Assembly (NCBI RefSeq): GCF_036365525.1
Contig: NC_090384.1
Coordinates: forward strand, 50,599,192-50,663,191
Direction: 5' to 3'
Source of the DNA: Heterodontus francisci
Lineage: Eukaryota
Length of the DNA: 64,000 nucleotides
Made by a program: the position numbers and the translations under genes. The notes under the pieces were generated by a model. It was not told the origin of the DNA. It was given only the letters and a program-made list of their open reading frames with translations, and searched no databases. This document shows, piece by piece, positions 1-60,654 of this stretch (the first letter of the stretch is position 1; every line of letters begins with the position of its first letter).

Positions 1-119
1 ATGAGAGTTTTGGGGTGGGGGGGGGGGGGTTGTGACCACTGTACAGTCCTTGTGGAGATGAAGTGCCATCATCAGGGCCTGTTTCAGTGCTGTTTCTCTA
101 AGTCTAAAAAAGTCTAAAT
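1..119 (+). mobile_element. 3' tail of HE1-like SINE or CR1 (truncated by window start)
   Basis: gggcctgtttcagtgctgtttctctaagtctaaa resembles the 3' end of the SINE at 53141-53488. Confidence 0.5.
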
Positions 120-139
120 CACACTGAGGGCATCCTTCA

Positions 140-1400
140 TCGTGTTGTGTGGTAATATCACTGTGCTAAATGGGATAGATTCAGAACAGATCTAACAGCT
201 CAAATCTGGGTATCCATGAGGTGCTGTGGGCATCAGCAGCAGCAGAATTGTATTTCCCCACAATATGTAACCACATGACCTTATTCTGCCATTATCATCA
301 AGCTAGGCGACCAACCCTGGTTCAATGAGGAGTGCTAGCAGCAGCACCAGGCACACCTAAAAATGAGGAGCCAACTTGGTGAAGTTGCAACATAGGACTA
401 CATGCATGCTAAACAGTGGAAGCAGCATGCTATAGACAGAGCTAAGTGATCCTGCAATCAACGAATCGGATCAGAGCTCTGCTGTCCTACAATATCCAGT
501 AGTGAATGGTGATGGACAATTAAACAACTAACGGGTGAATGAGTCTCCACGAGCATCCCCATTTTCAGTGACAGCAGAGCCCCAAAACATGTTGAAAAGA
601 CAAGGCTGAAGCATTGACGACCATCGTCAACCAGAAGTGCTGAGTGGATGATCCATCTCAGCCTCCCTCTTATTTCCTCACTATCACAAAAGCCAATCTT
701 CAGCCAATACGATTCACTCCACGTGATATCAAAGAAAAGACTGAGTGCACTGGTTATAGCAAAGGCTGTGGGCCCCGACAACATCCCAGCTGTAGTGCTG
801 AAGACTTCTGCTCCAGAACTAGCCGCATCTCTAGCCAAGCTGTTCCTACAACACTAACAGGACAAATCCAATCCAGCCAATTACTGCCCCATCAGTGTAA
901 TCTCATTCATCTGCAAAGTGATGGAAGTTGTGGTCGACAGTGCTATCAAGAAGCACTTACTCACCAATATCTTGCTCACTGATATAAAAGCAAAATACTG
1001 CGGATGCTGGAAATCTGAAACAAAAACAAGAAATGCTGGATTCACTCAGCAGGTCTGGCAGCATCTGTGGAAAGAGAAGCAGAGTTAACGTTTCGGGTCA
1101 GTGACCCTTCTTCGGAAGAAGGGTCACTGACCCGAAACGTTAACTCTGCTTCTCTTTCCACAGATGCTGCCAGACCTGCTGAGTGAATCCAGCATTTCTT
1201 GTTTTTGTGTCTTGCTCACTGATGCTCAGTCAGGTTTCTGCCAGGACCGCTCAGCTCCGGAGCTCACTACAACCTTGGTCCAAACATGAACAAAAGAGCT
1301 GAATTCCTGAAGTGATGTGAGAGTGGTTGACCTTGACATCAAAGCAGCATTTGATTGAGTTTGGCATCAAGGAACCCTAACAAAATTGAGGTCAATGAGA
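140..1400 (+). mobile_element. Degenerate LINE family B ORF2 fragment, interrupted by the PLE hairpin at 984-1209
   Basis: Colinear with ~35845-36955 (PIRFTPRDIK, KAVGPDNIPAVVLKT, ttgacatcaaagcagcatttga); many stops and frameshifts. Confidence 0.85.
984..1209. mobile_element. Fold-back (palindromic) insertion of the Penelope-like element 3' end
   Basis: Arms 1020-1113 and 1115-1208 are exact reverse complements; sequence matches PLE 3' ends at 39300-39397 and 57206-57340; flanked by direct repeat TCTTGCTCACTGAT (970-983, 1210-1223). Confidence 0.92.
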
Positions 1401-1669
1401 ATAAGAAGAATGGGCACGGAAGTAAAGAAAGAGCGATTAGGAGGGGGTGATCAAAACCTCAAAGCCATGGGTTTTAAAGAGAGTTTTATTGGAGAGCAGT
1501 GAAGAGGCAAAGGGTTTGGGAAGGAAATTACAGAGAGTAGAGTCAACAGTTTGGTCGGGGGTGGGGAGGCAGGTGTGTGGGGGGGTGGGGGTGGTGGTTG
1601 CGGTGGGGGGGTGGTGGGGGAGGGTGATTGTTCAATGCACAAAAGGCTGTAGTCAAGTAAAGAAAGAAT

Positions 1670-2040
1670 GAAAGATTTGCATTTATTATCTCCTTATCTC
1701 ATTTCTCAGATTGTCTCCAAATGTTTGAAATAGAATGAATTAATTTAAAAGACAGTTGTTGACGTTATGCAGACAAATGCAGCAGCTATGCTGCATACAG
1801 AAGATCCCACAAATAGAAAAGAGATGATTAACCACTTAATCTGTTTTTGGTAGACACATGGAAAACACCCCATTTTCCTTCAAATAAAGTCCAGCTGAAT
1901 AGCTGAATGGATCATTCAAAGACTGGAATCTCTGACAATGCAGCATTCCTCAGAGGTGAGTGTCAGCCTACGTTATACTCTCAAACCCTGCAGTATAGCC
2001 ACAATTTTCTGACACAAAGGCTACCATTATACCAAATGAT
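1670..2040 (-). mobile_element. Degenerate Deu/SacSINE1-like SINE
   Basis: Reverse complement resembles 12119-12560 (aaagatttgcatttat tail, aagatcccacaaatag, ttaatctgttttt). Confidence 0.55.
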
Positions 2041-3194
2041 CCCAGTTGGCCTTAAAATTACATTTTGGCATTTAAAGAAGAACTTATTGCTCATAGTAAG
2101 AGTCTTTCATTGTGCCTGTAAGCAAAGCTTTAATCTAAAATCCCATTATCCTCAAGCAGATGCACTGAGGAGATGGATCTGCCACAGGATTAGCCTTACA
2201 GGACTTTGCAGCTCCCTTAGTGAGAACTGAAATGCCTACATCAGCTCTTCATTACTTAAAATTATTCACATGCGGTACTGAACCAGCGCTGAAGCCTCTT
2301 GACTCACATTGTGAATAAACTGAGCCACCTGATAGGTTTTCTAGGTTAACCTGTGGTTTGGTCAAACTAATTCCAACACAAACATTTGGAAATCCTGCCA
2401 GATTCTCTCACCAACATAGTCTGTTGTTTTTGAGATGCCAGCAGCTGCCCATTAACTTTTGTCATTGCCTGGCTGGAGGTCAGAAACATGCTGGTCGTTT
2501 GGCAATGTAAGTTATGTGCAATGGAAGTGATATACAGAAGAGAAAACTATGGATGGGAATCCTTAGACTTCACTTTTTGTTTCTGTTTGTTGTTTTTTTA
2601 GATGTCAACAGCTGCTTGCTAAATTCTGTATTACACCTCACTATGAGCCAAGAGCATTGCAACAGCTGGGCAGTGTAAATTACAGACATTCACAACAATA
2701 TAGAAGAAGAGAAAAACCTGCAGCAGGGGTCTAGGACATTAACAACATAAATTTCTCCCTGAAAGACCTAAAAAAGGAAATAATTCCAATGTGATGATAC
2801 ATTGAAAACTTTAAAAATCTCAACTAAAATATTAATTACTTGATAACCTGAACAGTGCCATATATATAAATTAAATAAAGATTCACCTAACCTTTAATAA
2901 GTGAATATAAACAAGTATTGTACTGAAACTGCAGAGAATGGCTCATAGTGCTTTCTCTGTTTGACCTTTTGCTATTCAGGGTGAAATTCTCTATAGTGTA
3001 TAGTCCTCTTCATAAGGCTTTTTGTGCACAAGATGACTCACTTCTTGTTTCATGTCATGCATGTTACCGCAACAGATTTTAAAGGTGTTACATTATCTTT
3101 CAAGCAAGGCTATTGAAAAATCAGAAGATTGTAATAGAAATTACAGGGAGTTTTCATAATTTCTTCCAGAGACATTGTTAGCTATTGTGCATAA

Positions 3195-5358
3195 GACGAT
3201 ATAGTAAGGCACTTAGAAAAATTCAAGGTTATCAGGCAGAGTAAGCATGATTTTGTGAAAGGGAAATCATGTCTAACTTGGAGTTCTTTGAAGAAGTAAC
3301 ACCTGCTATGGATAAAGGGGAATCGGTAGATGTACTGTACTTAGATTTCCAGAAGATATCTGATAAGGTGCGACATCAAAAAGTTATCGTGGAAAAATAA
3401 AAGCTCATGGTATAGTGGGTAACATATTGGCATGGATAGATGATTGGCTAGCTAACAGGAAACAGAGAGTAGGCATAAATGGGCCATTTTCTGGTTGGCA
3501 AGATGTAACGAGTGGTGTCCCACAGGCATCAGTGCTGGAGCCTCAAATTTTTCCAATTTATATAAATGACTTGGATAAATGGACTGAAGGTCTGGTTGCT
3601 AAATTTGCTGATGACACAAAGATAGGTAGGAACATAAGTTGTGAAGCGGACATAAAGAGGCTCCAAAGGGATATAGAGAGGTAAAATGAATGGGCAAAGA
3701 TCTGGTAAATGGAGTATAATGTGGGAAAATGTGAAATTGTTCATTTTGGCAGGAAGAATAAAAAGCAAGCATATTATCTAAATGGTGTTATGACCAGGTA
3801 GGAAAGCGGTCTAGGGTTCCCTTTCAGCCTTCACCTGGTCTTACGGTAACAGGATTTAATTTTAAACACACCATGTTTTTAGCTCCCCATTGGTGAATCC
3901 TTGTTCACCTCTTTCCAATTATAAGGCAAAGAAACCAGCACAAACAGGCTTTCTTATGTTTAAAGAAGAAAAGTTGAAATTTATTAAACTTAAACTCTAA
4001 TTCAGTTAATGCCTACAGATGCATGATGCACCCACGCTAGCATGCATACAAGATACACATGCAAATAGAGACAGAAAAGAGCAGGAAAAAAAAGTGGAAA
4101 AGTTTGAGGTAATATCTGAAGAGTTGTTGTTACGGTTCTTTGAGCTCATTGTAGAGTCCTTGATTGTAGGTAGATCTTGCTTTTCGTTGGGGCCCAGTAT
4201 TCTTCTTAAACCTTGTTCGCTGTAGGAGACTTTTCTCTCTTGGTGTTCATGTGTCTTCATTGGATTCAGAGGCTTGTGAGAAAGAGATGGAAGCAGACAG
4301 GTAAAACATCTTCTCAGTCCAGGAGCAAACAGACTTTCTCTCTTCAAACTCTCTGCAGCCAGTTCAGAAGAAAGCCCTGGAACAGCCAGGTAGTCATGTG
4401 ACCAGCTGGTTGAATCAGTCCTGGCCCTTGTGGAGTGTATCCTCCTTAGCAGGCCCTTCAATGTCTGTTAGTATGTAAATGGTTTTTTTCCAGCCATGGC
4501 TGTTCTGTTTAACAAGTCATTTCCTCGTTCCAACAACAGTTAAAAATCAATGTTCATGACAAAATTGATATGCCTCATTCTTGACAGGTGGGGGCCTAGC
4601 ATGACAATGGTGAGAGATTGCAGAGTTTTGAAATGCAGAGGGATCTATGTGTCCTAGTGCACGAATCACAAAAGGTTAGTATGCAGGTTCAGCAAGTAAT
4701 TAGGAAGCTAGTAGAATGTTAACGTTTATTGTGAGGCGAATTGAATACAAAAGGAGGGAGGTTATGCTTCAGTTATACAGGGCATTGGTGAGACCACATC
4801 TGGAGTACTGTGTACAGTATTGGTCTCCTTATTTAAGGAAGGATGTAAATGCTTTGGAAGCAATTCAGAGAATGTTTAAGAGACTAATACCTGGAATGGG
4901 CTGGTTGTCTTATGAAGAAAGGTTGGACAGGCTAGGCTTGTATCTGCTGGAGTTTAAAAGAATAAGAGGTGACTTGATTGAAACATCTAAGATCTTGAGG
5001 GGTCTTGACAAGGTGGATGTGGAAAGGTTCTTTCCCCTTGTGGGAAGATCTAGAAATAGGGGTCACTATTTAAAAATAAGGGGTCGCACATTTAAGACAG
5101 AGATGAAGGGAAATTTTTTTCTCTCAGAGGTTGTGAGTCTTTGGAACTCTCGTCCTCAAAAGGCAGTGGAAGCAGAGTCTTGAAATATTTTAAGGCAGAG
5201 GTAGATAGATTCTTGATAAACAAAGGGGTGAAAGGTTTTCTGGTTAGGCAGGGATGTGGAGTTGAGGTTATAATCAGATCAACCATGATCTTATTGAATG
5301 GTGGAGCAGGCTCGAGGGGCCGAATGGCCTACTCCTGCTCCTAATTCGTATGTTCATA
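3195..5358 (+). mobile_element. CR1-type LINE (family A), 5'-truncated RT and 3' tail, split by a solo LTR
   Basis: ORFs 3415-3684 (SGVPQ..FADDTK) and 4716-5183 (LVRPHLEYCVQYWSP); tail gggccgaatggcctactcctgctcctaattcgtatg. Confidence 0.92.
3786..4606. mobile_element. Solo LTR
   Basis: TGTTATG...CATGACA termini; 4-bp TSD ATGG (3782-3785, 4607-4610); removing it rejoins the CR1 sequence encoding YLNGERLQ. Confidence 0.85.
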
Positions 5359-7854: not shown

Positions 7855-8226
7855 ATCATTGCTGGCAAGATCAGCCTTTGTTGCCCATCCCTAGATGCCC
7901 TTGACAACTGAATGGCTTGCTAGGCCATTTCAGAGAGCAGTTAAGAGTCAATCCTGTTGCTGTGGGTCTGGAGTCATAAGTCACCCAGACCAATAGATTT
8001 CTTCTTCCCTAAAGGGCATTAGTGAACCAGATGGGTTTTTACAACAATCAATGATAGCTTCCTGGCAGCATTACTGCAACTAGCTTTCAATTCCAGTCTT
8101 TTACTAATTAATTGAATTCAAATTCCACCAGTTGCTGTGGTGGGATTTGAACCCATTTCCCCAGGGCATTAGCCTGGTCCTCTGGATTACTAGTCCAGTG
8201 ACATTATCACTATGCCCTGTCTCTCC
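7855..8226 (-). mobile_element. tRNA-headed SINE sharing body and tail with LINE family B
   Basis: A-box-like GGGCATAGTGA, stem-loop CTGGA-CTAGTAA-TCCAG (8182-8198), B-box GGTTCAAATCCC (8142-8153); body matches 34940-35067; tail matches 44025-44075. Confidence 0.8.
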
Positions 8227-21698: not shown

Positions 21699-22671
21699 GC
21701 CTTCCCTGTGCACTGCCATTTAGCTTATATTTGTTGCATTCTATTTAAATCAAAATCTGCAGTTAAAATGATCTCTTTAGTGGTGATAGATTTAAATCAC
21801 AGGGATAAAAGAAGACATTCTGGCACTGTTAGAGCTTTCAACATTGTGAAAATGTTAGGAGTGAGATTGATGATTACAACAGTGAAGACAAATCACATAT
21901 CACATTTACGCTGATCTTAGGAAATAAGTTGGCATTAGTACAAAGTGGATTTCCATGCTTTACACTCCTGCCAACACTTTCACTAGCATTAGTGAATGAA
22001 GGTTTCATTTGAATTCATAACAAGTGGGCTTCACTCCAAATGAGTGAAACATATCAGGTCTGGATACTGTACAGTTGATGTAAGAGTTCTTGCAGACAGT
22101 GCAGAAACCAAAGGTTCAAGTTCCAGTGCCTTGGTTTGGCTGAGAAATACAATACCATCTCACCTCAAAAGCATTTTGTGTTGCTCAGCTAATGGAGTAT
22201 GGCTGGTAGCTATCTGCTAGCAAATTATTGAATACCAACAGCCTCTGCCCGGGAAAATCTATATTGAAACTTTGTTTTGCTGCATAAAATGAACGTGAGT
22301 GAGTTTATGTCCAAACCACGACATTAATTCATCTAGATAATGAATAAATAAGACAATCCTGTCAAAGATAAAATCAGAGTGCAAATCAGAGTGGTGTTGG
22401 GTATGAAACTGGGTGCTGTACAAAAAGAATAGGAGAGACAAGTTTTGAATTTCTACCTGTAAACTAAAAAATCCGATTGGAAAACTTTCATTGAAAAATC
22501 ACAAAACCTTTCATATTCAATAATAAATATAACTATTAATATAGGATCCTTGAGCATGTGGCAGGAAAACTTTGAAGAATTGCTAGAATAAGTGTTGACT
22601 TAGGACACCATAAATATCTGAGAAAGTTATGTAAAGCTGATCTAGAAAAGTTAAATTGTTATTTCTGAAAC

Positions 22672-23582
22672 TCTGGTGTCTAGTAGTCTTGGGTTCTACC
22701 TGCCCAGGTAGGTTTAAATCTCACCATGGTAAGTTGTGCAAATAAATTCAATAGATCTGGTAATTTGTGACTGGCATCAGGAAAACAGCATTGAAAGCTT
22801 CCAGATTGTTATAAATACTTCATTGGTTCCCTAACGTCTTTCAGGGAAGAGAAGCTTCTACCCCTACCTGATCTGACCTACCTGTGACTCAGGCCCTGCA
22901 CTATATGGTTGATTCTTAATGTCTTCTGAAGTGGCCCAGCAAGCTACCCAGTTGCAAACAATCACAATAAAGTTCAATATTATGAAAAAAAATAGACAGA
23001 CCTATCGACAATGACTCAGGCATAATATCAGAATAAGACAAAAGCAATCTCAGCTCAGTCAATCCTGCAAAGCCATCTTTACTAATAGCTGGGGTCTCAT
23101 GACCAGATTGGGAGAGCTATCCCACAGATTGGTCAAGCAACAATTTGACACAGTCAAATCATAGAATCATATCCACCAGTCAACGTCTCAGACTTCTCCT
23201 TCAAGATCTCTGAAAATGTTTTGTCTCACCTTAGGACAGACTCACCAGAAGTGGGTTGCAATGATATACATAGACTCTGGACCCCTGAAATCCCATGACT
23301 TCATGTCAAACAGGGTCATGGAAACTTCCTGCTGATCATCAACTGTCCCTTCCCCCCTTCAACTAATGTATAAGTATTCTTCCATGTTAAAAGTTGCTTG
23401 AATGAAGCTCTGAGGGAAAAAAGAGTACAGAATGTACTCTGGGTGGTGAAATCTTAATGTCCATGACCAACATTGGCTTGGTAGTACCACCATTAACCTA
23501 AGTTGCAGAGTTCTGAAGGACATAGCAGCAAGGCTAGGACTATGTCAGGTGCTGAGGGAAACAACATTAGGAAGTAACCTAC
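22672..23582 (+). mobile_element. Old 5' portion of LINE family B, including tRNA-like head remnant, 5'UTR and APE start
   Basis: B-box remnant GGTTTAAATCTC at 22711; colinear with 34940-35720 (gggagagctatcccacagattggtcaagcaac, aatgtactctgggtgg). Confidence 0.75.
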
Positions 23583-23968
23583 TTTTTTTTATTCTTTCAT
23601 GGGATGTGGGTGCCACTGGCAAGGCCAACATTTGTTGCCCGTCCCTAATTGCCCTTGATAAGTGAATAGCTTGCTCAGCCATTTCAGAGGGCAGTTAAGA
23701 GTCAACCGCCTTGCTGTGGGTCTGGAGTCACATATAGGCCAGACCAGTTAAGGACGGCAGATTTCCTTTCCTAAAGGACATTCGTGAACCAGAAGCGTTT
23801 TTATGACAATCGCTGATAGTTTCATCGCACCATTACGAGCTTTCAATTCCAGATTTTTATTAATTAATTGAATTTATTAATTGAAGTTAAATTCCACCAG
23901 CTGCTGTGGTGGGATTTTCACCTGTGTCCCTGGGCATGGGCCTCTGGATTACTTGTTAGGTAACATTA
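23583..23968 (-). mobile_element. Second copy of the family-B-related tRNA SINE
   Basis: Same body-to-tail junction as 7855-8226; A-rich tail at 23583-23592. Confidence 0.8.
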
Positions 23969-24255
23969 TTAGGGGTCGCCCTTTTAGAACAGAGCTGATG
24001 AGAATTTGTTTTTCTCAGAGGGTTGTGCGACTTTGGAATTCTCTGCCTCAGAAGGTGGTGGAGGCAGGGTCGTTGAATATTTTCAAGCTGGAGGTAGATA
24101 GATTCTTGCTAGGCAAGGGAATCAAAGGTTATCGGGGGTATATGGGAGTGTGGAATTTGAGACAAAAACAAATCAGCCATGATCTTATTGAATGGCAGAG
24201 CAGGCTTGAGGGGCCAAATATTCGACTCCTGCTCCTAATTCGTATGTTCGTATGT
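23969..24255 (+). mobile_element. CR1 3' end
   Basis: RGRPFRTELMRICFSQRVVRLWNSLPQ; tail ctcctaattcgtatgttcgtatg. Confidence 0.85.
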
Positions 24256-24317
24256 ACCACTACGCCACCATCTCCCCACTTGATTTAGTATACACACCCT
24301 CCCCTAAAATATATAGG

Positions 24318-24660
24318 ATCAGCCAAGGCTCAGCTGGTAGCAATCTCACTTCTGAGTCACAAATCCCACTCCAGCACTTGAGCAAAAACACAAGGCACAC
24401 TCCAGTGCAGTACTGAGGGAATGCTTCTACTATCGGAAGTGCTGTATTTCAGATGAGATGTTAAACTGAGGTCCCATCTGCCCTGTCAGGTAGATGTAAA
24501 AGATTCCATGGTCCTATTTCAAAGAAGAGCAGGTGAGCTCTTCACAGTGTTCTGACCAATATTTCTCCCTCAATCAGCATCAGAAAAACAGATTATCTGG
24601 CCATTATCAAATTGCTGTTTGTGGGAGATTGCAAATTGGCTGGTGTATTTCCTACATTAT
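24318..24660 (+). mobile_element. Deu-domain SINE, truncated by the Gypsy LTR
   Basis: Similar to 12119-12480; similarity ends at the TG start of the LTR at 24661. Confidence 0.72.
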
Positions 24661-27320
24661 TGTTTAGGGGCGACCTTAAGAAGGGACCACCTTAAGAGCT
24701 TCAAGTGAAGATCACTGGAAGAAGTGATGTTGTGACGCACATGACCAGGTAGTTGCAGATGGAGCCCAACAGAACGAGACATGTGTAGGTGTGCTTGTGC
24801 TGTAACTGTTTGTATATATATATATGTTCCAATTAAGTTATATTAAAACTCATATTTTCTTTGGATATTACTTGTAGTCCTGTGAGTCTGACAATAGATC
24901 ACACACCAAAAGAACAAGTAATATTACATGGTGGCAATGGTGAGATATATTGATTCTGAAGACCACCAAAAATTACATCATGGCAACATTTGATTTACTT
25001 TCTGAAGAACACACTAAGAGCAAACAAAGAACAGCAGGCTGCCTATCTGGAGTGGCTGAAGATCCAGCAGGAGATCCCACATCACTGCAGTGAGGTAGGC
25101 TACAGAGAGGACCCTGGAAGGTGTTGAAACTCTCTGAGTACAGCTGGCAGTCTTCCAGGATATTAGAGCTTTCACCTAATCTGGCTGTGGGTCAAAAAAT
25201 TTGAAAAAACAGTAGCTGAAGCATTTACTGTTTCAGTTTTCCTTTTTTGGCTTTGTGGGTGGGGCCTAAGCTTAAAAGTGCAGGATGCACTTGACAGTGC
25301 CACTGGAGGTCCAGGCTGGTTGTGGCAACTGCCAGTACTGCAAGCTCCAGCCCTCTCGAAAAAAATCTTCTCAGTTAACAAAAGGCAGCTGACAGTTTTT
25401 TAAAAAACTAGCCTGTGTGAAGGCAGCTGTCGATCTGTTTTTAAAAAAAAGATGTAATCTCATTCTTAAAAGGGACAGGGCTGTAAAAACAAGTCTATCT
25501 TAAAGAGGAAATAGAAATATGTCTGCTGTGAAATAGAAAACCTGTGAAAATGCCTGCAGTTATAAAAAATTAGGATCATTAAGACAATGTCTTTCAGATA
25601 TCCTGTTATTGTTTGGAAGGCGGCGGACATAGCAGCTGAATCTAAATTGTTTTGACAGCAAATGGAGTTGTTTTTCTGGATCAAAAAATGACTGAACCAG
25701 AGAAACAAGCTCCCAAAATTAAGATCGCACTGGGCAATGAGGGCCTGAAATGGATCAATATGTCAGGATTGCCAGCTGAGGATCAGAAAGACCCTAGCAA
25801 GATATAGGAATTCCTGGAGCAGCAACTCAAAGTGAAGGTAAATTTCCGCCTACATAGGCTTGAGCTGATGACCTACCAGCAAAGGCAAGATATGTCCATT
25901 AATCAGTTTGTTGCAAGGTGCTGAGACAAAGCTCAATATTGTCACTTCACAGATATCAAACTGTCAGAATGGGTTATAGAGCTAGTAATCACATCTACCC
26001 TATTAGAGGCCTTTCAAAAGGACCTGCTAAAAAAGAGAAAGGACACACCATAAATGCACTACCCAATTATGGAAGGAAATTTGAAGCCATCATGGCTGGG
26101 TGCCAACAGTTGCAAGCATTGGGGGCGGCTATGACAATTGGTATGGTAACCAAGGCTGAGAGGTCTGCAAAGCCTTGCGGCAAATGTGGCCTGACTCGCC
26201 CAGTTTGCAGTTGTGTGGCGTAACAGGACCAATGCAAAGCTTGTGGCATCCGAGGACATTGGGCAAGGCAGTGCAGAAGGCTGCGCTCAGATACTGCACA
26301 CAGGAATGGTGGCAGATCACATGCAGAGAGAATATCTGTAAGACAGGATGGCAACATACAACAAAAGCCCAAGCAGGTACATCAGGTCAGCAGAGAGACA
26401 GATTGTCAGGAGGACAAGGATGAAGAGTGCATTCGTGCAAATAGTGAGCAAGCATTTCACATTATTAACTTGGATCAACATGTCAATGCTATTACGCAGT
26501 CTGAGGCATTCACCATGATCAGGATTATATGCCAACAGAAGAGTGGCAAGCACAAGCTCAGAGTAAAAATTGACACTGGAACAAGTGCAAATATTCTGCC
26601 CATCTGCATACTGAAGGACATGTATTTAAAGAAATGGGAATCTATGGTGCAACTCACCATGGCTAGGCTGACTGCCTACAATGGTTCTCCAATCAAATGC
26701 ATTGGAAAGATAACTTTACAGTGCAGCTATGGGAGCTCCAAATGTCCTCACACAAATGTTTGATATTGTAGACACAACTGTCGCAGGACTTACAGTCTGC
26801 AGAGATTTACAAATTGTCACAATGCATGAGGTCAGCACCACACCGAAAGATATGGAAGGTTGCAACACAGACTGCATTGAGTCGGTTAGAGACCTGAAAC
26901 TACCTTCCTCAGACAAGTTTGATGCAATTGGTGATTTCAAGGATGATGTCATATTGCATGTGAGGGAGGATGCAGTCCTTACTATCGACCCATCAAGGAA
27001 GTGCAGTGTGTACATTCAAGAGAAGCTTAAAGTGGAGCTCATTGAGATGGAGCACAACGGAGTCATCTGCCGAGTGCACCAGCATTCTGATTGGTGCAGC
27101 TCTATTACCTGCCTGCTGAAGAAAGATGGCAATCTCAGTGTTTGCTTGCACCTGAGACAGTTGAATTTAGCCTTGAATAGATGCCAGCCTAAAATTCTAA
27201 CCTTGGAGGAGCTGAATCCTAAGTTTACTTGTGCTAAGTATTTTTCAAAGATTAATGTGAAGCATGGCTACTGGTCTGTCCATTTAGCCAAGAAGTCCCA
27301 GCTACTCACAACTTATAGAA
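24661..27320 (+). mobile_element. Gypsy/Ty3 LTR retrotransposon, 5' half (LTR 24661-24928, PBS, gag, protease, RT N-terminus), decayed
   Basis: TG...CA LTR followed by PBS-like TGGTGGCAATGGTG (24929-24942); CCHC knuckle CKACGIRGHWARQC (26233-26274); protease KIDTGTSANILP; RT motifs KKDGNLSVCLHLRQLN and YFSKINVKHGYWSV. Confidence 0.85.
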
Positions 27321-28296
27321 TGCTTGGTAGTTTGATGAGTTGGTTAAATTTGGTGAAGTTGACAGGGAGTGGAGGTGCACATGGAAAAGGCCTTGGTAGT
27401 GACTTCAAAGGTTCTGGTCAGACCACTTGCTCCCAGTCATGGGTGTTAGAGTTGCAACCCTCCTTGGTCTACAATGTGAGAGGGAGAAGGAGAAGAGTCA
27501 GCAAAGAAGAGGACAAACTGCTTGCAGAGGGAGGAGGAGCTCTCAGCAGGAGGCCTTGTCCACCCATGTTCTCCGGAAGAATTTCTCCCTCCAACGAAGC
27601 TAGAAGCAATGTGTGTGTCATCTGCATTTTACAAAGGATGTGCTCACAGATCTCTGCTGTCTTTTGCAACCAGACCTGCAACCTCAGAGCAGAGTAAGGA
27701 CGGTACTGCCAGTGGATGTGAAGATGACTGTGGCCCTGAATTTATTGGTGTTGGAATCCTTCCAGGCTGGAGCAAGCAACATTTGTACCTCTCCCAATTT
27801 GCCAGTGCTACCTCAGAGAGGAGACAGGTGCTCTTTATTCTAGGAGAGGGTAAACGTCCTGCCTATCACACACATGAGTAATGCGATGTATGAATTTCAA
27901 TGCCAGTGTGATGCTAGATATATAGGCTGTACATCCCAAAGACTGGCAGATCACATCGAACGACATGTCCCTTCCACTGTTCGCAATGGGCAAGGTACAG
28001 GCCGTACCCAACCAGCCCATGCTTGCAAAACACAAAACACATTAGATGTGATTCCATGATTGGACAACATTTGCTAAATAATCCACAGTGTACTAAGAAT
28101 TACACTGACAATCAATTTAAGATTGTCAGTCGGACTCGCAGTGTGGTGCATTTGCGCATATTGGAAGCTACATATATTAATACACAAGGCCCTGTTCTTT
28201 ACAGACAGAAAGAACATGCACACACATTGCACCTGTTTCAGCTAAACAAAATAAGTGACAGCCATTCGTTGGTTCATTCCTAAGGGCAATGCTTGA

Positions 28297-34089: not shown

Positions 34090-34410
34090 ATAAATAAAGA
34101 CATTCACAAATTGATGAAGGTACATGTGATAATGAGACTCAAAATGATGGTACAAATGAATAAGCCTATACGATGTTGAAGTTGTATGTTGATGTTAGTT
34201 TTAATAAAGGGGCAATAGTAACTTCAATAGAGATAGAGGGTAAGGTTATTACAATGGAGGTTGATATGGGGTCCAGTGTAACAGTGGTACCTTTGGTCTT
34301 CTATGAAGCCAACTTGCTCATTTTCCTATGTGAGAGGCAGATAAATCATTTGTTAGCTTCACAGGGGCAAATATCAAGCCCACTGGAAAGGTGAAGGTGA
34401 AGGTTAGATA
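34090..34410 (+). mobile_element. Gypsy-type aspartic protease remnant
   Basis: IEIEGKVITMEVDMGSSVTVVP (degenerate DTG motif). Confidence 0.6.
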
Positions 34411-34939: not shown

Positions 34940-37915
34940 CTAATGTCCTTTAGGGAAGGAAATCTGCTGTCCTTACCTGGTCTGGCCTACATGTGACTCC
35001 AGACCCACAGCAATGTGGTTAACTCTTATATGCCCTCTGAAATGGCCTAGCAAGCCACTCAGTTGTACCTGACATTGATGAGGTCAATTAAAGGGAATGA
35101 AACCGGACGGACTACCCGGCATCGACCTAGGCACTGGAAACAACAACGGCAAACCCAGCCCTGTCGACCCTGCAAAGTCCTCCTTACTAATATCTCGGGG
35201 CTTGTGCCAAACTTGGGAGAGCTGTCCCACAGACTAGTCAAGCAACAGCCTGACATAGTCATACTCACGGAATCATACGTGACAGACAATGTCCCAGATA
35301 CTGCCATCACCATCCCCGGGTATGTCATGTCCCACGGGCAGGACAGACCCACCAGAGGTGGTGGCACAGTGGTATACAGTAGGGAGGGAGTTGCCCTGGG
35401 AGTCCTCAACATTGACTCTGGACCCCATGAAGTCTCATGGCATCAGGTCAAACATGGGCAAGGTAACCTCCTACTGATTACCACCTACCGCCCTCCCTCA
35501 GCTGATGACTCAGTGCTCCTCCATGTTGAACACCACTTGGAGGAAGCACTGAGGGTGGTAAGGGCACAAAATGTACTCTGGGTGGGGGACTTCAATGCCC
35601 ATCACCAAGAGTGGCTCGGTAGCACCACTACTGATCGAGCTGGCCGAGTCCTAAAGGACATAGTTGCTAGACTGGGTATGCGGCAGGTGGTGAGGGAACC
35701 AACACGAGGTAAAAACATACTTGACCTCATCCTCACCAATCTGCCTGCCGCAGATGCTTCTGTCCATGACTGTATTGGTAGGGGTGACCACCACACAGTC
35801 CTTGTGGAGACCAAGTCCCGCCTTCACTTTGAGGTTACCCTCCATCGTGTTGTGTGGCACTACCACCGTGCTAAATGGGATAGCTTTCGAACAGATCTAG
35901 CAATGCAAACCTGGTCATCCATGAGGCGCTCTGGGCCATCAGCAGCAGCAAAATTGTATTCATCCACAATCTGTAAGCTCATGGCCTGGCATATCCCCCA
36001 CTCTACCAGTACCATCAAGCCAGGAGACCAACCCTGGTTCAATGAAGAGTGCAGGAGGGCATGCCAGGAGCAGCACCAGGCATACCTCAAAATGAGGTGT
36101 CAACCTGGTGAAGCTACAACACAGGACTATCTGCGTGCCAAACTGCGTAAGCAGCATACGATAGACAGAGCTAAGCAATCCCATAACCAACGGATCAGAT
36201 CTAAGCTCTGCAGTCCTGCCACATCCAGCCGTGAATGGTGGTGGACAATTGAACAACTAACTGGAGGAGGAGGCTCCAAAAATATCTCCATCCTCAATGA
36301 TGGGGGAGCCCAGCACATCAGTGTGAAAGATAAGGTTGAAGCATTTGCAACAATCTTCAGCCAGAAGTGCCAAGTTGATGATCCATCTCGGCCTCCTCCT
36401 GAAGTCCCCAGCATCACAGATGCCAGACTTCAGCCAATTCGATTCACTCCGCGTGATATCAAGAAACGACTGAAGGCACTGGATACTGCAAAAGCTATGG
36501 GCCCTGACAATATTCCAACAATAGTACTGAAGACCTGTGCTCCAGAACTTGCCACGACCCTAGCCAAGCTGTTCCAGTACAGCTACAACACTGGCATCTA
36601 CCCTGCAATGTGGAAAATTGCCCAGGTATGTCCTGTACACAAAAAGCAGGGCAAGTCCAACCCGGCCAATTACCGCCCCATCGGCTTACTCTCAATCATC
36701 AATAAAGTGATGGAAGGTGTCACCAACAGTGCCATCAAGCGGCACTTGCTTAGCAATAACCTGCTCAGTGACGCTCAGTTTGGGTTCTGCCAGGGCCACT
36801 CAGCTCCTGACCTCATTACAGCCTTGGTTCAAACATGGACAAAAGAGCTGATCTCAAGAGGTGAGGTGAGAGTGACTGCCCTTGACATCAAGGCAGCATT
36901 TGACCGAGTATGGCATCAAGGAGCCCTAGCAAAACTGAGGACAATGGAAATCAAGGGGAAAACCCTCTGTTTGCTGGAGTCATACCTAGCGCAAAGGAAG
37001 ATGGTTGTGGTTGTTGGAGGTCAATCATCTGAGCTCCAGGACATCACTGCAGGAGTTCCTCAGGTTAGTGTCCTAGGCCCAACCATCTTCAGCTGCTTCA
37101 TCAATCACCTTCCTTCAATCATAAGGTTGGAAGTGGGGATGTTTACGGATGATTGCACAATGTTCAGCACCATTCGTGACTCCTCAGATACTGAAGCAAT
37201 CCGTGTCGAAATGCAGCAAGACCTGGACAATAGCCAGGCTTGGGCTGATAAGTGGCAAGTAACATTCGCGCCACACACGTGCCAGGCAATGACCATCTCA
37301 AGCAAGAGAGAACCAAACCATCTCCCCTTGACATTCAACAGCATTACCATCGCTGAATCCCCCACTATCAACATCCTAGGGGCCACCATTGACCAGAAAC
37401 TGAACAGGAATAGCCATCTAAATACCGTGGCTACAAGAGCAGGTCAGGGGCTAGGAATCCTGAGACAAGTAACTCACCTCCTGACTCACCAAAGCCTGTC
37501 TACCATCTACAAGGCACAAGTCAGGAGTGTGTGGAATACTCTCCATTTGCCTGGATGGGTGCAGCTCCAACAGCACTCAAGAAGCTCGACACCATCCAGG
37601 ACAAAGCAGCCCGCTTGAATGGCACCCCACCTACAAACATTCACTCCCTCCACCACCGACGCATAGTGGCAGCATTGACAAGATGCACTGCAGCAATGCA
37701 CCAAGGCTCCTTAGACAGCACCTTCCAAACCCGTGACCTTGACCACCTCGAAGGACAAGGGCAGCAAATGCATGGGAACATCACCACCTGCAAGTTCCCC
37801 TCCAAGTCACACACCATCCTGACTTGGAACTATATCGCCGTTCCTTCACTGTTGCTGGGTCAAAATCCTGGAACTCCCTTCCTAACCGCACTGTGGGTAT
37901 ACCTTTTGGTTTGGA
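34940..37915 (+). mobile_element. LINE family B (CR1/L2-group non-LTR retrotransposon), near full-length, 3' tail missing
   Basis: Short 5' leader, then a single APE-RT ORF; frameshifted C-terminus 37531-37900; followed directly by the PLE copy. Confidence 0.9.
35063..37618 (+). CDS. Apurinic-like endonuclease plus reverse transcriptase (851 aa, frameshift near 37530)
   Basis: APE motifs ILTES, YRPP, GDFNAH, ILDLILTN, GDH; RT motifs GPDNIP, NYRPIGLL, DIKAAFDRVWH, GVPQVSVLGP, FTDD. Confidence 0.9.
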   Translation: MYLTLMRSIKGNETGRTTRHRPRHWKQQRQTQPCRPCKVLLTNISGLVPNLGELSHRLVKQQPDIVILTESYVTDNVPDTAITIPGYVMSHGQDRPTRGGGTVVYSREGVALGVLNIDSGPHEVSWHQVKHGQGNLLLITTYRPPSADDSVLLHVEHHLEEALRVVRAQNVLWVGDFNAHHQEWLGSTTTDRAGRVLKDIVARLGMRQVVREPTRGKNILDLILTNLPAADASVHDCIGRGDHHTVLVETKSRLHFEVTLHRVVWHYHRAKWDSFRTDLAMQTWSSMRRSGPSAAAKLYSSTICKLMAWHIPHSTSTIKPGDQPWFNEECRRACQEQHQAYLKMRCQPGEATTQDYLRAKLRKQHTIDRAKQSHNQRIRSKLCSPATSSREWWWTIEQLTGGGGSKNISILNDGGAQHISVKDKVEAFATIFSQKCQVDDPSRPPPEVPSITDARLQPIRFTPRDIKKRLKALDTAKAMGPDNIPTIVLKTCAPELATTLAKLFQYSYNTGIYPAMWKIAQVCPVHKKQGKSNPANYRPIGLLSIINKVMEGVTNSAIKRHLLSNNLLSDAQFGFCQGHSAPDLITALVQTWTKELISRGEVRVTALDIKAAFDRVWHQGALAKLRTMEIKGKTLCLLESYLAQRKMVVVVGGQSSELQDITAGVPQVSVLGPTIFSCFINHLPSIIRLEVGMFTDDCTMFSTIRDSSDTEAIRVEMQQDLDNSQAWADKWQVTFAPHTCQAMTISSKREPNHLPLTFNSITIAESPTINILGATIDQKLNRNSHLNTVATRAGQGLGILRQVTHLLTHQSLSTIYKAQVRSVWNTLHLPGWVQLQQHSRSSTPSRTKQPA

Positions 37916-38020
37916 AGGTGCTTTGCTTCCAATTTCCACCCTTCTCTCACCTTTACATGGTCCATCTCTGACACTTCCCTTCCCTTCCTCGACTTCTCTG
38001 TCTCCATCTCTGGGGATAGG

Positions 38021-38929
38021 TTGTCTACCAATATCTATTATAAGCCCACTGACTCCCACAGCTACCTCGACTACACTTCTTCACACCCTACCTCCTGTAA
38101 GGACTCCATTCCATTCTCCCAGTTTCTCCGTCTCCGACGCATCTGCTCTGAAGATGCTACCTTCCATGACGGTGCTTCTGATATGGCCTCCTTTTTCCTC
38201 AACCGAGGATTTCCCCCCACTGTGGTTGACAGGGCCCTCAACCGTGTCCGACCCATTCCCCGCACCTCTACCCTCACCCCTTCCCCTCCCTCCCAGAACC
38301 GTGACAGGGTTCCCCTTGTCCTCACTTTTCATCCCACCAGCCTCCATATCCAAAGGATCATCCTCCGCCATTTTCGCCACCTCCAGCGTGATGCCACTAC
38401 CAGTCGCATCTTCCCCTCCCTTCCCCTGTCAGCATTCCGAAGGGATCGTTCCCTCCGCGACACCCTGGTCCACTCCTCCATTACCCCCACCACCTCGTCC
38501 CCGTCCCAGGGCACCTTCCCTTGCAATCGCAGGAGGTGTAACACCTGCCCATTTACCTCCTCTCTCCTCACTATCCCAGGCCCCAAACACTCCTTTCAGG
38601 TGAAGCAGCGATTTACTTGTACTTCTTTCAATGTAGTATACTGTATTCGCTGCTCACAGTGTGGTCTCCTCTACATTGGGGAGACCAAGCGCAGACTGGG
38701 TGACCGCTTTGCGGAACATCTCCGCTCAGTCCGCAAGCAGGACCCTGAGCTTCCGGTTGCTTGCCATTTCAACACTCCCCCCTGCTCTCATGCTCACATC
38801 TCTGTCCTGGGATTGCTGCAGTGTTCCAGTGAACATCAACGCAAGCTCGAGGAACAGCATCTCATCTACCGATTAGGCACACTACAGCCTGCCGGACTGA
38901 ACATTGAGTTCAATAATTTCAGAGCATGA
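38021..38929 (+). CDS. PLE RT C-terminus plus GIY-YIG endonuclease (open to the stop codon)
   Basis: VVYCIRCSQCGLLYIGETKRRLGDRFAEH...KLEEQHLIYRLGTLQPAGLN. Confidence 0.88.
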   Translation: MSTNIYYKPTDSHSYLDYTSSHPTSCKDSIPFSQFLRLRRICSEDATFHDGASDMASFFLNRGFPPTVVDRALNRVRPIPRTSTLTPSPPSQNRDRVPLVLTFHPTSLHIQRIILRHFRHLQRDATTSRIFPSLPLSAFRRDRSLRDTLVHSSITPTTSSPSQGTFPCNRRRCNTCPFTSSLLTIPGPKHSFQVKQRFTCTSFNVVYCIRCSQCGLLYIGETKRRLGDRFAEHLRSVRKQDPELPVACHFNTPPCSHAHISVLGLLQCSSEHQRKLEEQHLIYRLGTLQPAGLNIEFNNFRA

Positions 38930-43644: not shown

Positions 43645-44101
43645 CCGGCAGCTCTAACACATTCAAGAAACTTGATGCCCTCCAGCACCTTGCTGCCCAC
43701 TTGATCAGCACCCCATCCACCATCCTAAACATTCATTCCCTCCACCACTTGCACACAGTGACAGCAGTGTGTTCCATCTACAAGAGGCACTGCAGCAACT
43801 TGCCATGCCTGCTTTGACAGCAGCTTCCAAACCTGCGACCTCTACCACCTAGAAGGACACAGGGAGCAGACACGTGGGAACACCACTACCTGCCTGTTCC
43901 CTGCATCATTATGACTTGGAACTATATCGCCATTCCTCCTCTGTCATTGGGTCAAAAACCTGGAACTCCTGTACCTACACCATATGGACTGCAGTGGTTC
44001 AAAAAGGGGGCTCACCACCACCTTCTCAATGGCAATTAGGGATGGGCAACTGGTGCTGGCCTTGCCAGTGACACCCACATCCCATGAATAATTAAAAAAA
44101 A
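43645..44101 (+). mobile_element. LINE family B 3' end with tail
   Basis: Colinear with 37560-37900, then ggcaattagggatgggcaac...cacatcccatgaataattaaaaaaa. Confidence 0.8.
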
Positions 44102-50615: not shown

Positions 50616-50727
50616 ATAATGTGGGTTGACCCTCCTTTACAGTACGGAGGGAGTGCTGTATTGTAGAAAACATTGTCCTTTCGATGAGATGTTAAATTGA
50701 TTCTTTTTGAGTTGTTCAAGTGGACAT

Positions 50728-51030
50728 TTATATTGTTTGTTTATGGGATGTGAGCATCGCTGGCAAGACCAGCATTTATTGCCCATCCCTAATTGCCCTT
50801 GAGAAGGCCATGGTAAGCTACCTTCTTGAACCGCTGCAGTCCGTGTGGTGTAGGTACACCCACAGTGCTGTTAGGTAGAGAGTTCCAGGCTTTTGACTCA
50901 GTGGTGATGAAGGAACAATGATACATGTCCAACTCAGGTTGGTGTGTGACTTGGAGGGGAACTTGCAGATGGTGGTGTTCCTATGCTTCTGCTGCCCTTG
51001 TCCTTTTAGGTGCTGGAGGTTGTGGACTTG
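50728..51030 (-). mobile_element. LINE family B 3' end
   Basis: Reverse complement of 37740-37900 plus family tail; a second short tail piece at 50150-50200. Confidence 0.8.
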
Positions 51031-53140
51031 GAAAGTACTTTTCAGATTCGCTATTCAAAAAAGAGTAGGGAATTCTCATGGTATCTTGGCCAACGTTCTT
51101 CCCTCAACTAACAATTTGCTGTTCGTGGGATCTCACCGTGCATAACATGGTGCTTACATAGCAACAATCATTACTGTAAAGTAGTTCATTCTATGTAAAG
51201 AGTTTTGAAACATTTCTAAAAACTGACTAAGTAAATGCAAGCCTTTATTTCTTTCTTGTGGCTGTGCAGTGAAATGATTCTGTGGAGTGGTAGAAGATTG
51301 AAAGGTGTTGGTCTGAAGCTGATCCATTGATCACATTTAATGAAAATGTCCTACTCTAATACTGTTGATATTAGCTGATAAGAACATGGCTACTTGGTAC
51401 AATTTTTTAATGGGGATGATTTCTCAGGCATTAGTTGATTGTACTATTCTTAAAACAGAAATAATGAGTTTTGCCTGACATAATGGTTTCATTTTCATTA
51501 TGGTGCCCAGATTAACTTTCTTCAACTGCACCTGAAATCAGACTAATTAGTGCAAAGTCATTATATTGAAGTATTAGTTTGACAAATATAATGTCTGCAA
51601 ACTGTACTATTTTCAAATTTTCACTGATTAAAATTTGGCTGTTGGAATATTTAAATTGAGAACTTTTTGCGATAGAACTCAATGACTACATTTGAATGAT
51701 CCAATAGTTTGGATTAATAGATTGAAAATAAGAATACAGAGGAACACAGGTCTCATGACAAAGCCATGTGATTGTACTTAGTTTCATTCCTAAATGGTTT
51801 TTGGCACAAACAAAAGAAGTGAACAGTAATCAGAAAAGTTTTGGGGTCTCTGAAAAAAACACTTCAAATTAAAATTTATTCCATTGCAAAGTTAGAATGA
51901 AGTTTCAATATTTGTTTAAAAAATGTACTTGATTAGAATGGTCCTAGATTTGATTCTTGCTCGGGATAGTCATTTTCCTGCTCTGACTGCTCAGATGTTT
52001 TTGTCCTCTGGGTTTTGGAGCCTGTGAGGACTCCACCAATGACTGCCCCACAAGTACCTATACAGAGGCAGACTTAGCCATTTGGACAGGCAGCAGCATG
52101 TAGGGAGGAGGGCCAGAATTTAATGTTGAGGCGGTGAGCCCAACAACTGGCTGAAAAGTTGGGGACGAGTTCACCTCTGCCAGGCCAGGAAGCCACGCTG
52201 CAATTTTGCATGGCCCAGGCCCTTAATTGGCCTCGGTCGGGACTTCCACCACCTTGAGACAGGAAGTCCCACCTCCAAGTGCTGCCAATCAATCAGAGGG
52301 CTGGCAGCTCTTCAGTCCCAGCAGCAACACTAGGAGCAGTGGGCACTGCTGGGACTGCAACCAGCAAGAAGAGGAACGATGGACATCACCCTTCAAAGAG
52401 GTAAGTGGGAGTCAGGCCTCGTCGAGGACAATTGCCTAGGGAGTGGTGAGCGGGGTGGGGGGGGGGCGAGTGGGTTGGAGAGCAGGACAAGGGGGGTAAT
52501 TTGGGGGGTGGGGAGTAGGTCTGTGCTGCTGGAAGGGCCCTTCATGGGACACAGGGTGCCCGATCAGGAGGACCAACCCCCAGCCTGCAAGGAGGCTGCC
52601 AGGTATTACTAAGTGGCCTTCTTAGGTGCTGAAGTCCCCATCCGCAACTGGTAAAATAGTAGCGGGGGTGGGTAGATGACAGGCACTGTATCACCTGCCA
52701 CCCACATGATTTTATGCCCCCCTGCCTCCTAGCACACTCCCAGGGATGGTTGGGGATTGTTAGATTCCAGCTGAGAAGCGGGAGCACTTTGAGAAAAGTC
52801 CCCACTTCCAGGCACTCTTTCTTCATCTTCCATCTCATGGCCCACCCACACTTCCCTGGTAGCCAGGAGCTGGAGACCAGTTTGTTGTACTTCACTGGGG
52901 CACTGAACAGCCATTGATGAAAACCGGCACGCACTGAGTTTCCTGCCACTTCTGATGCTTCTTGCAGGTGGCCACCCTTTCCATGGACATAGACATTAGT
53001 GCAAAGACCTGTGTTACGAGTGCTTCTATATTTTTAAGCATTTTTTGAGGATTCATGTATTTTAGAGCTGGACATTGACTTATTTTGGGAAAACTGTAAA
53101 GACTCCATGGATGGGTTTTTATCAGGGTCATTGAGAGGTC

Positions 53141-54083: not shown

Positions 54084-54229
54084 NNNNNNNNNNNNNNNNN
54101 NNNNNNNNNNNNNNNNNNNNNNNNNNNNNNNNNNNNNNNNNNNNNNNNNNNNNNNNNNNNNNNNNNNNNNNNNNNNNNNNNNNNNNNNNNNNNNNNNNNN
54201 NNNNNNNNNNNNNNNNNNNNNNNNNNNNN
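54084..54229. other. Assembly gap (146 N)
   Basis: Run of N. Confidence 1.
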
Positions 54230-57748: not shown

Positions 57749-58858
57749 CTAATCGGTAAATGAGATGCTGTTCCTCGAGTTTGCGTTGATGTTCACTGGA
57801 ACACTGCAGCAATCCCAGGACAGAGATGTGAGCATGAGAGCAGGGGGAATGTTGAAATGGCAAGCAACCGGAAGCTCAGGGTCCTGCTTGCGGACTGAGC
57901 GGAGATGTTCCGCAAAGCGGTCACCCAGTCTGCGCTTGGTCTCCCCAATGTAGAGGAGACCACACTGTGAGCAGCGAATACAGTATACTACATTGAAAGA
58001 AGTACAAGTAAATTGCTGCTTCACCTGAAAGGAGTGTTTGGGGCCTGGGATAGTGAGGAGAGAGGAGGTAAATGGGCAGGTATTACACCTCCTGCGATTG
58101 CAGGGGAAGGTGCCATGGGACGGGGACGAGGTGGTGGGGGTAATGGAGGAGTGGACCAGGGTGTCGCGGAGGGAACAATCCCTTCGGAATGCTGACAGGG
58201 GAAGGGAGGGGAAGATGCGACTGGTAGTGGCATCACGCTGGAGGTGGCGGAAATGGCGGAGGATGATCCTTTGGATATGGAGGCTGGTGGGGTGAAAAGT
58301 GAGGACAAGGGGAACCCTGTCACGGTTCTGGGAGGGAGGGGAAGGGGTGAGGGTAGAGGTGCGGGGAATGGGCCGGACACGGTTGAGGGCCCTGTCAACC
58401 ACAGTGGGGGGAAATCCTCGGTTGAGGAAAAAGGAGGCCATATCAGAAGCACCGTCATGGAAGGTAGCATCATCAGAGCATATGCGTCGGAGACGGAGAA
58501 ACTGGGAGAATGGAATGGAGTCCTTACAGGAGGTAGGGTGTGAAGAAATGTAGTCGAGGTAGCTGTGGGAGTCGGTGGGCTTATAATGGATGTTAGTAGA
58601 CAACCTATCCCCAGAGATGGAGACAGAGAAGTCGAGGAAGGGAAGGGAAGTGTCAGAGATGGACCATGTAAAGGTGAGAGAAGGGTGGAAATTGGAAGCA
58701 AAGTTGATAAAGTTTTCCAGTTCGGGGCGGGAGCAGGAAACGGCACCGATACAGTCATCAATGTACCGGAAAAAGAGTTGGGGGAGGGGGCCTGAGTAGG
58801 ACTGGAACAAAGAATGCTCGACATATCCCACAAAAAGACAGGCATAACTAGGACCCAT
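57749..58858 (-). pseudogene. PLE RT plus GIY-YIG ORF segment, frameshifted at both ends
   Basis: RYIDD; near-identical to 38021-38929 but with a 1-nt deletion in the C-run near 57845 and a frameshift near 58860. Confidence 0.85.
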
Positions 58859-60654
58859 GCGGTACCCATAGCGACACCTTTTACTTGAAGGAAGTGCGTG
58901 GAGTTGAAGGAGAAGTTGTTCAATGTGAGAACAAGTTCAGCCAGGCGGAGGAGGGTGGTGGTGGATGGGGACTGGTTGGGCCTCTGTTGCAGGAAGAAGC
59001 GGAGAGCCCTCAAACCATGCTGGTGGGGGATGGAGGTGTAGAGCGATTGGACTTCCATAGTGAAGAGGAGGCGGTTGGGACCAGGAAACTGGAAATTGTC
59101 AAAATGACGTAGGGCGTCAGAAGAGTCACGGATGGATGTAGGTCAGAAGAAACTGGACCAGCGGAGAAAAGATAGAGTCTAGATAGGAAGAAATAAGTTC
59201 AGTGGGGCAGGAGCAGGCTGACACAATCGGTCTGCCGGGACAGTCCCGTATTATAGTAGTGAAATAAAGGATCAGTACTCCTGCATGTTTGGATACAATC
59301 TCCTGTTTCAGCAGCACACCTAATATCCTTTTGGGTTTTATGTTAGGTCTTTCATTTAGGTTTAGCATCACTGATCGCTTTTGTAAGTGGATCTTGTGCC
59401 CACTATGAACCTGATCGTGCCTTTATCTTCCCATATATAGATAAATGTAACGAGGCCAAGGAATTAAACAGAGAACACTTGTCACTATACATTGGCTTAC
59501 TGGAATGTGCTCCCATATGGTTTTCTTCATTCCACAGATTGAATCTATACTCTGACAAACCAGGCCTCAGACTACAAGCAACAGCAAATTGATCAGGTAA
59601 ATGAACAGTATTCAGCATATTTACAGAGCTACACATTTTGCTGTGCTATATTATATATAAGTAGTTATATTATATATAATATATATACAACTCCCTGAGC
59701 TATCTCTAAACATACAGTGGTGGCAGTTTACTTCTAATGAGTCAAAACTTTATCAGTGAGTTATTGATTTAGCATAGTCTTTCTGGTACTGGCAAACTAA
59801 TTGCCAATCTAGGTGCCCATAGTCCCAAACAAGATCACATGAGAAACTTCAAGTCACAAAGTAGCCCATGAAAATACTACGGCCAACCATTTACCCTGCC
59901 TCTTCTCACAGGTTTGATATACAGTTGTTAATCAGAACTATCATCTCAGGCTGGCTTGATTCTTTGATCTGTGCCAGATAATTTGAACTACTTGAACTGA
60001 GAAGATGTCAGAACATACAACATTAGAAAATTACCTAATTATGTAGATTGATTGCTATTTCCAAAGTTCAAACACAGCTAATGATTATATGACAAAGATG
60101 AAACTTCTATGGGCTAGTCGATTGAAAATGAAATGCTTTTGTCACTTAAGCAATTAATTTATTAAACTCTCTTTCATTTGATAGGATTCAAAACACAAAT
60201 GCCCATAATTGATTTTGATCTGAAAAACTGGAATGCATCATACAGAATCAACTGATCGAAATCAATGTGAATCCTTTTATGGACTGTGGCCAAGAGTAAA
60301 GAATCAAATTGATAAACTAAAGACATACAGAAGTGCTTAATTTATGTCACAATGTACGCAACTTGATTCGCATCCTTGTATCTCTGCCTAGGCCAAGGAG
60401 TTAGAGGACAGCTAGTACATTCCTCTGTCTCTAGCTTCAAGTGAACATTGACGCAACATCACTATCAATGCTATTGATGCTCTGCAGCTTCACAGATTAT
60501 TATATTGCAGATGCTACATGAAAAAAAGTAATTCAAAATTGCTTTTATTTCAGATATTTGTCTATGTGTCAAACCCAGCCATTAAGAATGACGTGCAAGC
60601 TGTTTTCTGAAAATCAAGTCTCCATTTTACACCCGAATGTAACAATACTACTAA

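Follow-up and report, generated by a model that had tools for sequence, protein, structure and literature searches.

Elasmobranch Zenon LINEs begin with a tRNA-like head, a candidate RNA polymerase III promoter for a coding retrotransposon

As a working rule, LINEs use RNA polymerase II (Pol II) and SINEs use RNA polymerase III (Pol III), which is regarded as serving short non-coding RNAs only. In the available parts of the literature, SINE-type Pol III elements are said to be limited to 100-700 bp (PMC10886601). The tRNA-derived, bipartite LINE-derived SINEs (PMC5786205) and the T+ SINEs (PMC8466645) resemble the element described here in having an A/B-box head, a LINE-derived body or tail and an AATAAA near their end, but they are short and non-coding, whereas here a complete coding LINE bears the head. 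Kojima's model has the head joined to a LINE that has lost its interior beforehand (PMC5786205). Retrotransposons with Pol III promoters derived from small RNAs are also found in the TRIMp3 group (Cassandra, Helenus and Ajax; PMC10886601) which, unlike this LINE, are of LTR type, non-autonomous and at most ~1.3 kb long. RTE-1_DAn and related elements are a precedent for an autonomous-type LINE with a tRNA-like sequence, but they belong to the RTE clade, and the position and role of that sequence are unstated in the available text of PMC5786205. Lepidopteran Zenon (PMC6740152) likewise has a single ORF and a poly(A), and in Persaeus, its short, internally deleted element, the 5' end is fused to the 3' end; Persaeus is stated, in the part of that paper at hand, to have neither tRNA homology nor a Pol III promoter, whereas both the LINE and the derivative studied here have a tRNA-like head.

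Zenon elements themselves are reported in sharks and rays, always without an ORF1 and with a poly(A) (Stuart et al. 2026, PMC13343379). The CarCar, ScyCan, RhiTyp, SquAca and HypSab_Zenon elements of that paper share with the LINE described here a length of ~3.3 kb, a single APE-RT ORF, the lack of an ORF1 and an A tail; within the available part of the source no structural difference was found, and the first 400 nt are near-identical by eye. All seven elasmobranch consensuses in the supplement open with the same head (first 400 nt, by eye), and within this stretch both boxes, A and B, are conserved between rays and sharks and their spacer is not; the three rows from hagfish and coelacanth are headless and hold TTTT runs over the same length (by eye). 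The initial annotation had named the element a candidate for an undescribed system and had regarded the lack of an ORF1 as unusual. Neither view stands, as the family is already catalogued as elasmobranch Zenon and Zenon elements are all known to be without ORF1. Neither "tRNA" nor "polymerase III" occurs in the main text of PMC13343379, in whose available parts the head, the T-run depletion, the missing AUG and the short derivatives are not discussed, and a literature search by titles and beginnings of abstracts, outside repeat databases and subscription journals, returned no account of elasmobranch Zenon elements with a Pol III head. A whale shark preprint (10.1101/443036) names CR1-Zenon, in its available part, merely as a repeat class. 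The family is known, and its tRNA-head architecture is apparently unremarked.

The window, that is, the whole 64-kb stretch of Heterodontus francisci DNA that was analysed, contains at 22672-23582 what is, judging by alignment, a decayed copy of this 3.3-kb elasmobranch Zenon LINE with its single APE-RT ORF. This old copy had been described as running without a break from a degenerate tRNA-like head through the body into the APE start. From the B-box region onwards this contiguity is confirmed, since window positions 22701-23584 correspond to element nt 66-980 in a single-piece alignment (E=2e-134) to a profile of nine full-length genomic copies. The tRNA-like head held up in its B-box half, which is homologous, and did not in its 5' half, which is degenerate and has no A box. 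This 5' half lies at 22673-22707 (plus strand): the segment 22655-22710 matched 33 heads of the older subfamily weakly (shuffle P=0.04), the head up to 22709 gave no hit with a profile of older heads and no recognisable A box, and ARAGORN called a tRNA on it at an 80% threshold and none at default. The B box and T-arm follow at 22708-22724 (plus strand), with the B-box-like GGTTTAAATCTC at 22711-22722; this is the sole stretch that the older-head profile aligned, and BLAST matches to 39 other places begin near it. An inverted head was also considered for the old copy and ruled out (P=0.76). The body, a 5' untranslated region of older-subfamily type that is common to the short derivative, aligns at 22725-22939 (plus strand), and the broken 5' part of the ORF occupies 22940-23582 (plus strand), with its APE motif from ~23067; this part is 72% identical to genomic copy L065 over 515 nt and aligns to a young copy elsewhere in the window, to which the old copy is 67.5% identical across 797 nt. 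The subfamily of the old copy is an older one whose head is shorter, and the copy stops at 23582 because a minus-strand short derivative of the same family was inserted there.

The young copy (34940-37905, plus strand; profile alignment) covers element nt ~198-3174, its 3' end being cut by another element. The expected long APE-RT frame near its 5' end is there, in the form of 855 open codons at 35051-37618 (plus strand; ORF list) that start 111 nt past the 5' end of the copy, contain both Pfam Exo_endo_phos and RVT_1 and hold no TTTT. As this copy is headless and 5'-truncated at nt ~198, it cannot exclude an ORF1 alone, contrary to what had been argued from it; other genomic copies do.

Searching the 6-Gb genome of the species with window positions 22660-23300, we scored 40 places of 4167 candidates and examined 29 loci besides that of the window. 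In 26 of these 29, the common head is preceded by unrelated flanks, and the three others are 5'-truncated inside the body; the headed loci include five duplicates of one insertion and one interrupted copy, and 22 independent insertions were counted. For L015, L016, L018, L023 and L024, and again for L070 and L071, the same insertion and flank recur on several small contigs, as either segmental duplications or uncollapsed haplotypes. In an unbiased check, copies were chosen by their 3' end alone: 35 of 39 other matches were taken, two of which were on the wrong side, and among the 33 informative ones four reach the head, four more start at nt 97-268 and the rest are shorter. Together with five copies from the search for head plus ORF, these four give the nine full-length copies (3260-3607 nt, 94% mean identity, short A/T tail), whose upstream flanks show no similarity over the up to 1.3 kb compared. 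The prediction that full-length copies have their 5' ends at the tRNA-like head is therefore supported by 26 of the 29 loci and by 4 of the 33 unbiased copies. Since the element starts ~437 nt before the APE motif, directly after unrelated flanks, it has no room for an ORF1, as had been proposed.

The family layout consists of a head of ~100 nt, a body to nt ~310, an APE-RT frame of ~2.9 kb, a short 3' end and an A-rich tail of ~10 nt (median 10 nt for the A/T tail in 37 copies), with AATAAA ~45 nt ahead of the tail in 31 of 37 LINE copies. The 5' boundary is sharp and lies just upstream of the A box. No convincing target-site duplications were found in the nine full-length and 24 truncated copies, the longest exact repeats being of 4-9 nt and mostly off the junction, and copy L078 is inserted into another family copy flush within 3 nt, so that such duplications are unable to mark the element ends. 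Of 24 sequence runs considered, all consisted of contigs and one is recorded as RNA; the four that were aligned span the element and two show the joint of the short derivative, these contigs being silent on transcription start, strand and polymerase. In Heptranchias perlo, the gene model of an aldo-keto reductase includes a piece that is 85% identical to a quarter of the LINE's ORF, and this model has likely swallowed a LINE fragment. In a quick RT tree of 47 rows, which included no labelled Zenon protein, the element was grouped (SH-aLRT 96) with unlabelled proteins, invertebrate-type and lepidopteran, and stood apart from the CR1 family of the window; the canonical description of vertebrate CR1 (an esterase ORF1 or clustering with CR1, and no poly(A) tail) does not fit it.

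Across the family, ARAGORN folded the head as tRNA-Thr(AGT) in 7 of 25 cases at default, in 20 at a 90% threshold and in 24 at an 80% threshold, compared to 3 of 500 shuffles, and the A-to-B box spacing was 63-65 nt wherever both boxes were scored; Rfam made no tRNA call on the single head scanned. Older heads read AGC, and the longer head holds the anticodon arm twice, which is plain in the SquAca_Zenon-1 row and in copy L244. In the older copies L241 and L254 the head likewise leads on to the ORF, L244 being intermediate. When 30 loci were compared as possible parents, the only tRNA genes among them were Thr(TGT) and Lys(TTT), with best scores of 63 for Thr and 53 for Lys; the LINE's head may first have come from either a tRNA gene or a lost SINE.

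Comparing the three older headed copies (window, L241 and L254) with young ones, we found that the shared differences are distributed over codon positions 1/2/3 as 13/9/25 (P=0.012), while private changes are distributed as 81/67/75. Since the shared changes are concentrated at position 3, the protein was under purifying selection while the element was headed, in agreement with the proposal that it was autonomous with its head on. Non-coding and non-autonomous status applies only to the ~400-nt derivative. How the ORF is opened is less conventional. Some ten conserved ATGs precede the APE motif, and one codon past the last of them that is in frame stands a TAG in 18 of 25 copies (CAG in three, GAG in three, TCG in one) and also in six of the seven published elasmobranch Zenon rows (PMC13343379 supplement). 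No ATG downstream of this TAG is conserved among the copies compared, the ATG at codon 10 of the window copy being private. All 23 indel-free copies retain a TTG at codon 5. A 17-codon upstream frame (element nt ~215-270, window 22835-22890) is in phase with the ORF and is opened by an overlapping stop-start; it shows five synonymous and two other changes between subfamilies (P=0.03, post hoc), a pattern that base pairing could produce too. With no conserved AUG opening the ORF, we infer a non-canonical initiation. A conserved IRES-like fold of the body was tried and set aside as weak: the consensus of ten copies has 15 pairs at -7.6 kcal/mol, and one pair is altered on both sides in four copies (weak).

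Considering that a coding element starts with a tRNA-like head and lacks T runs, we propose that the elasmobranch Zenon LINE is probably transcribed in full by Pol III, with this head's A and B boxes as the promoter. The family has the features of a type 2 Pol III unit, namely a 5' head with both boxes and no internal oligo(T) terminator except a TATTT at nt 58, within the head, in six of the nine full-length copies. In mammalian SINEs, TATTT is a moderately efficient terminator (PMC8466645). TFIIIC would bind the internal boxes, so that every full-length insertion would bring its own promoter, and selection for a full-length template would have rid the coding strand of Pol III terminators. 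Translation of the uncapped RNA would be non-canonical, by reinitiation after short upstream frames, by TAG read-through past the in-frame ATG or from a near-cognate start, and the protein would use target-primed reverse transcription, begun at the A tail, to copy the RNA. SINE-like parasites would have arisen at least twice through internal deletion. The full scenario of an autonomous coding retrotransposon that has used 3.3-kb end-to-end Pol III transcription and cap-free, AUG-free translation since the shark-ray ancestor, and has spawned tRNA-type SINEs by internal deletion, looks to us evenly poised between right and wrong on these sequence features.

The ORF had been judged by eye to be poor in T runs, and counting upheld this impression: T5+ runs are absent from all nine full-length copies, which share, in a majority, no TTTT but 14 A4+ runs, and observed/expected ratios for TT/TTT/TTTT are 0.72/0.33/0.12, with A, C and G words less depleted, compared to 1.17/1.36/1.58 in the CR1 pieces of the window. 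Interrupted T tracts are scarce as well. As the nine copies come from one ancestral sequence, as their 94% mean identity indicates, this depletion counts as one observation. Shuffling synonymous codons in the young frame led to an expectation of 3.1 TTTT where there is none (P=0.016); under a dinucleotide-preserving null the expectation was 1.4 (P=0.25, not significant), because TT itself is depleted. Among 80 metagenome sequences of distant relatives, 65 had a coding match of at least 1.5 kb and 42 had at least 400 nt of upstream DNA. None of the 65 contained fewer than four TTTT runs, the lowest TTT ratio being 0.72, and none of the 42 showed a tRNA fold or a B box; these relatives have a higher T content (22-35% vs 21%) and other hosts. 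Past the tail there is no family-wide terminator, and TTTT occurs in 8 of 37 tails. The copies with TTTT or longer inside the ~10-nt tail are L043, L051, L056, L058, L063, L065, L073 and L074. T-run growth beside short A tails is known for mammalian T+ SINEs (PMC8466645, available part) and, by analogy, could equip single copies with a terminator.

Alternatively, and in our judgement unlikely, the full-length RNA would be made by Pol II, from an internal promoter in the body or by host read-through, the head being a passenger or an enhancer for the short derivatives only and the T-poverty being compositional. LINEs are generally described as Pol II transcripts (PMC10886601, PMC5786205, available parts), the non-significant dinucleotide null fits a compositional origin, and the AATAAA before the tail, which suits Pol II 3' processing too, is found in 31 of 37 LINE copies, when 21 of 24 short derivatives read AACAAA near their 3' end instead. 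However, a Pol II origin fits poorly with A and B boxes that were kept from rays to sharks despite the change in their spacer, with a depletion that is specific to T and absent from 65 of 65 distant relatives, and with the ~ten conserved upstream ATGs, which are ill-suited to cap-dependent scanning.

Ribozymes release defined 5' ends for R2 and RTE elements. The head could similarly act as RNA structure rather than as a promoter, as a tRNA mimic that RNase P would cleave (or as a recruiter of ribosomes), freeing a defined 5' end from longer host transcripts. The cloverleaf fold that most heads still have, the sharp 5' ends and the lack of a conserved AUG are compatible with this possibility, which we nevertheless consider improbable, as it leaves the T-run depletion across 3.3 kb unexplained and as the ARAGORN folds have mismatches in the acceptor stem and begin a few bases downstream of the element start.

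The initial annotation saw in the short elements a SINE whose tRNA promoter had been captured by the LINE. This direction was not sustained: in 24 of 25 short elements checked, LINE nt ~1-325 is joined to nt ~3217-3293, and older short elements, namely those at 4 of 24 loci and L247, L257 and L260, have the older head and a junction that lies ~30 nt earlier. Since there are two types of junction, each with the head of its own subfamily, repeated internal deletion of a headed LINE fits better than SINE capture, and the short element would most simply be an internal deletion derivative of this LINE. Chance nesting, or repeated recombination, of the very abundant short element (6287 first-look candidates) with headless LINE copies can hardly be entertained, since 22 independent loci, three older copies and seven published consensuses all show the head-body-ORF order without a seam, body and ORF being separated by neither a poly(A) nor a tail; this order is thus the structure of the family.

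If the Pol III reading is correct, the rule that equates LINEs with Pol II would be broken by a natural coding transcript of 3.3 kb made by Pol III, and an uncapped Pol III RNA would be able to supply the reverse transcriptase needed to fill the genome of a vertebrate. It would also mean that a SINE can be born directly, by deletion of the ORF while head and tail are kept, which is the opposite of the usual head-addition model. As the family is abundant and defined by its sequence, the predictions on promoter, terminator and start codon can be tested by ordinary reporter assays.

Other copies of the family lie in the window. The short non-coding derivative inserted into the old copy (23583-23965, minus strand; alignments) consists of LINE nt ~26-325 plus the last ~75 nt; its 5' end with the A box was read at 24255-24277 (minus strand), with a CR1 3' fragment in between (CR1-like frame 23881-24288). 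A second short derivative, with its head nearly whole, aligns at 7857-8217 (minus strand), an internal fragment of the LINE at 29-1405 (plus strand), and 5'-truncated 3' ends were found by profile alignment at 43648-44101 (plus strand) and 50725-51040 (minus strand). The window also contains a run of 146 N at 54084-54229, a decayed repeat at ~24318-24660 that we take to resemble the shark Deu-domain SINE SacSINE1, and fragments at 26224-27697 and ~34200-34400 that, from their motifs, presumably resemble Ty3/gypsy-type gag-protease-RT coding sequence. Two frames that are almost the same and contain RT-end and GIY-YIG-like motifs, at 37886-38929 (plus strand) and 57749-59142 (minus strand), are presumably Penelope-type elements, and one of them interrupts the 3' end of the young LINE copy.
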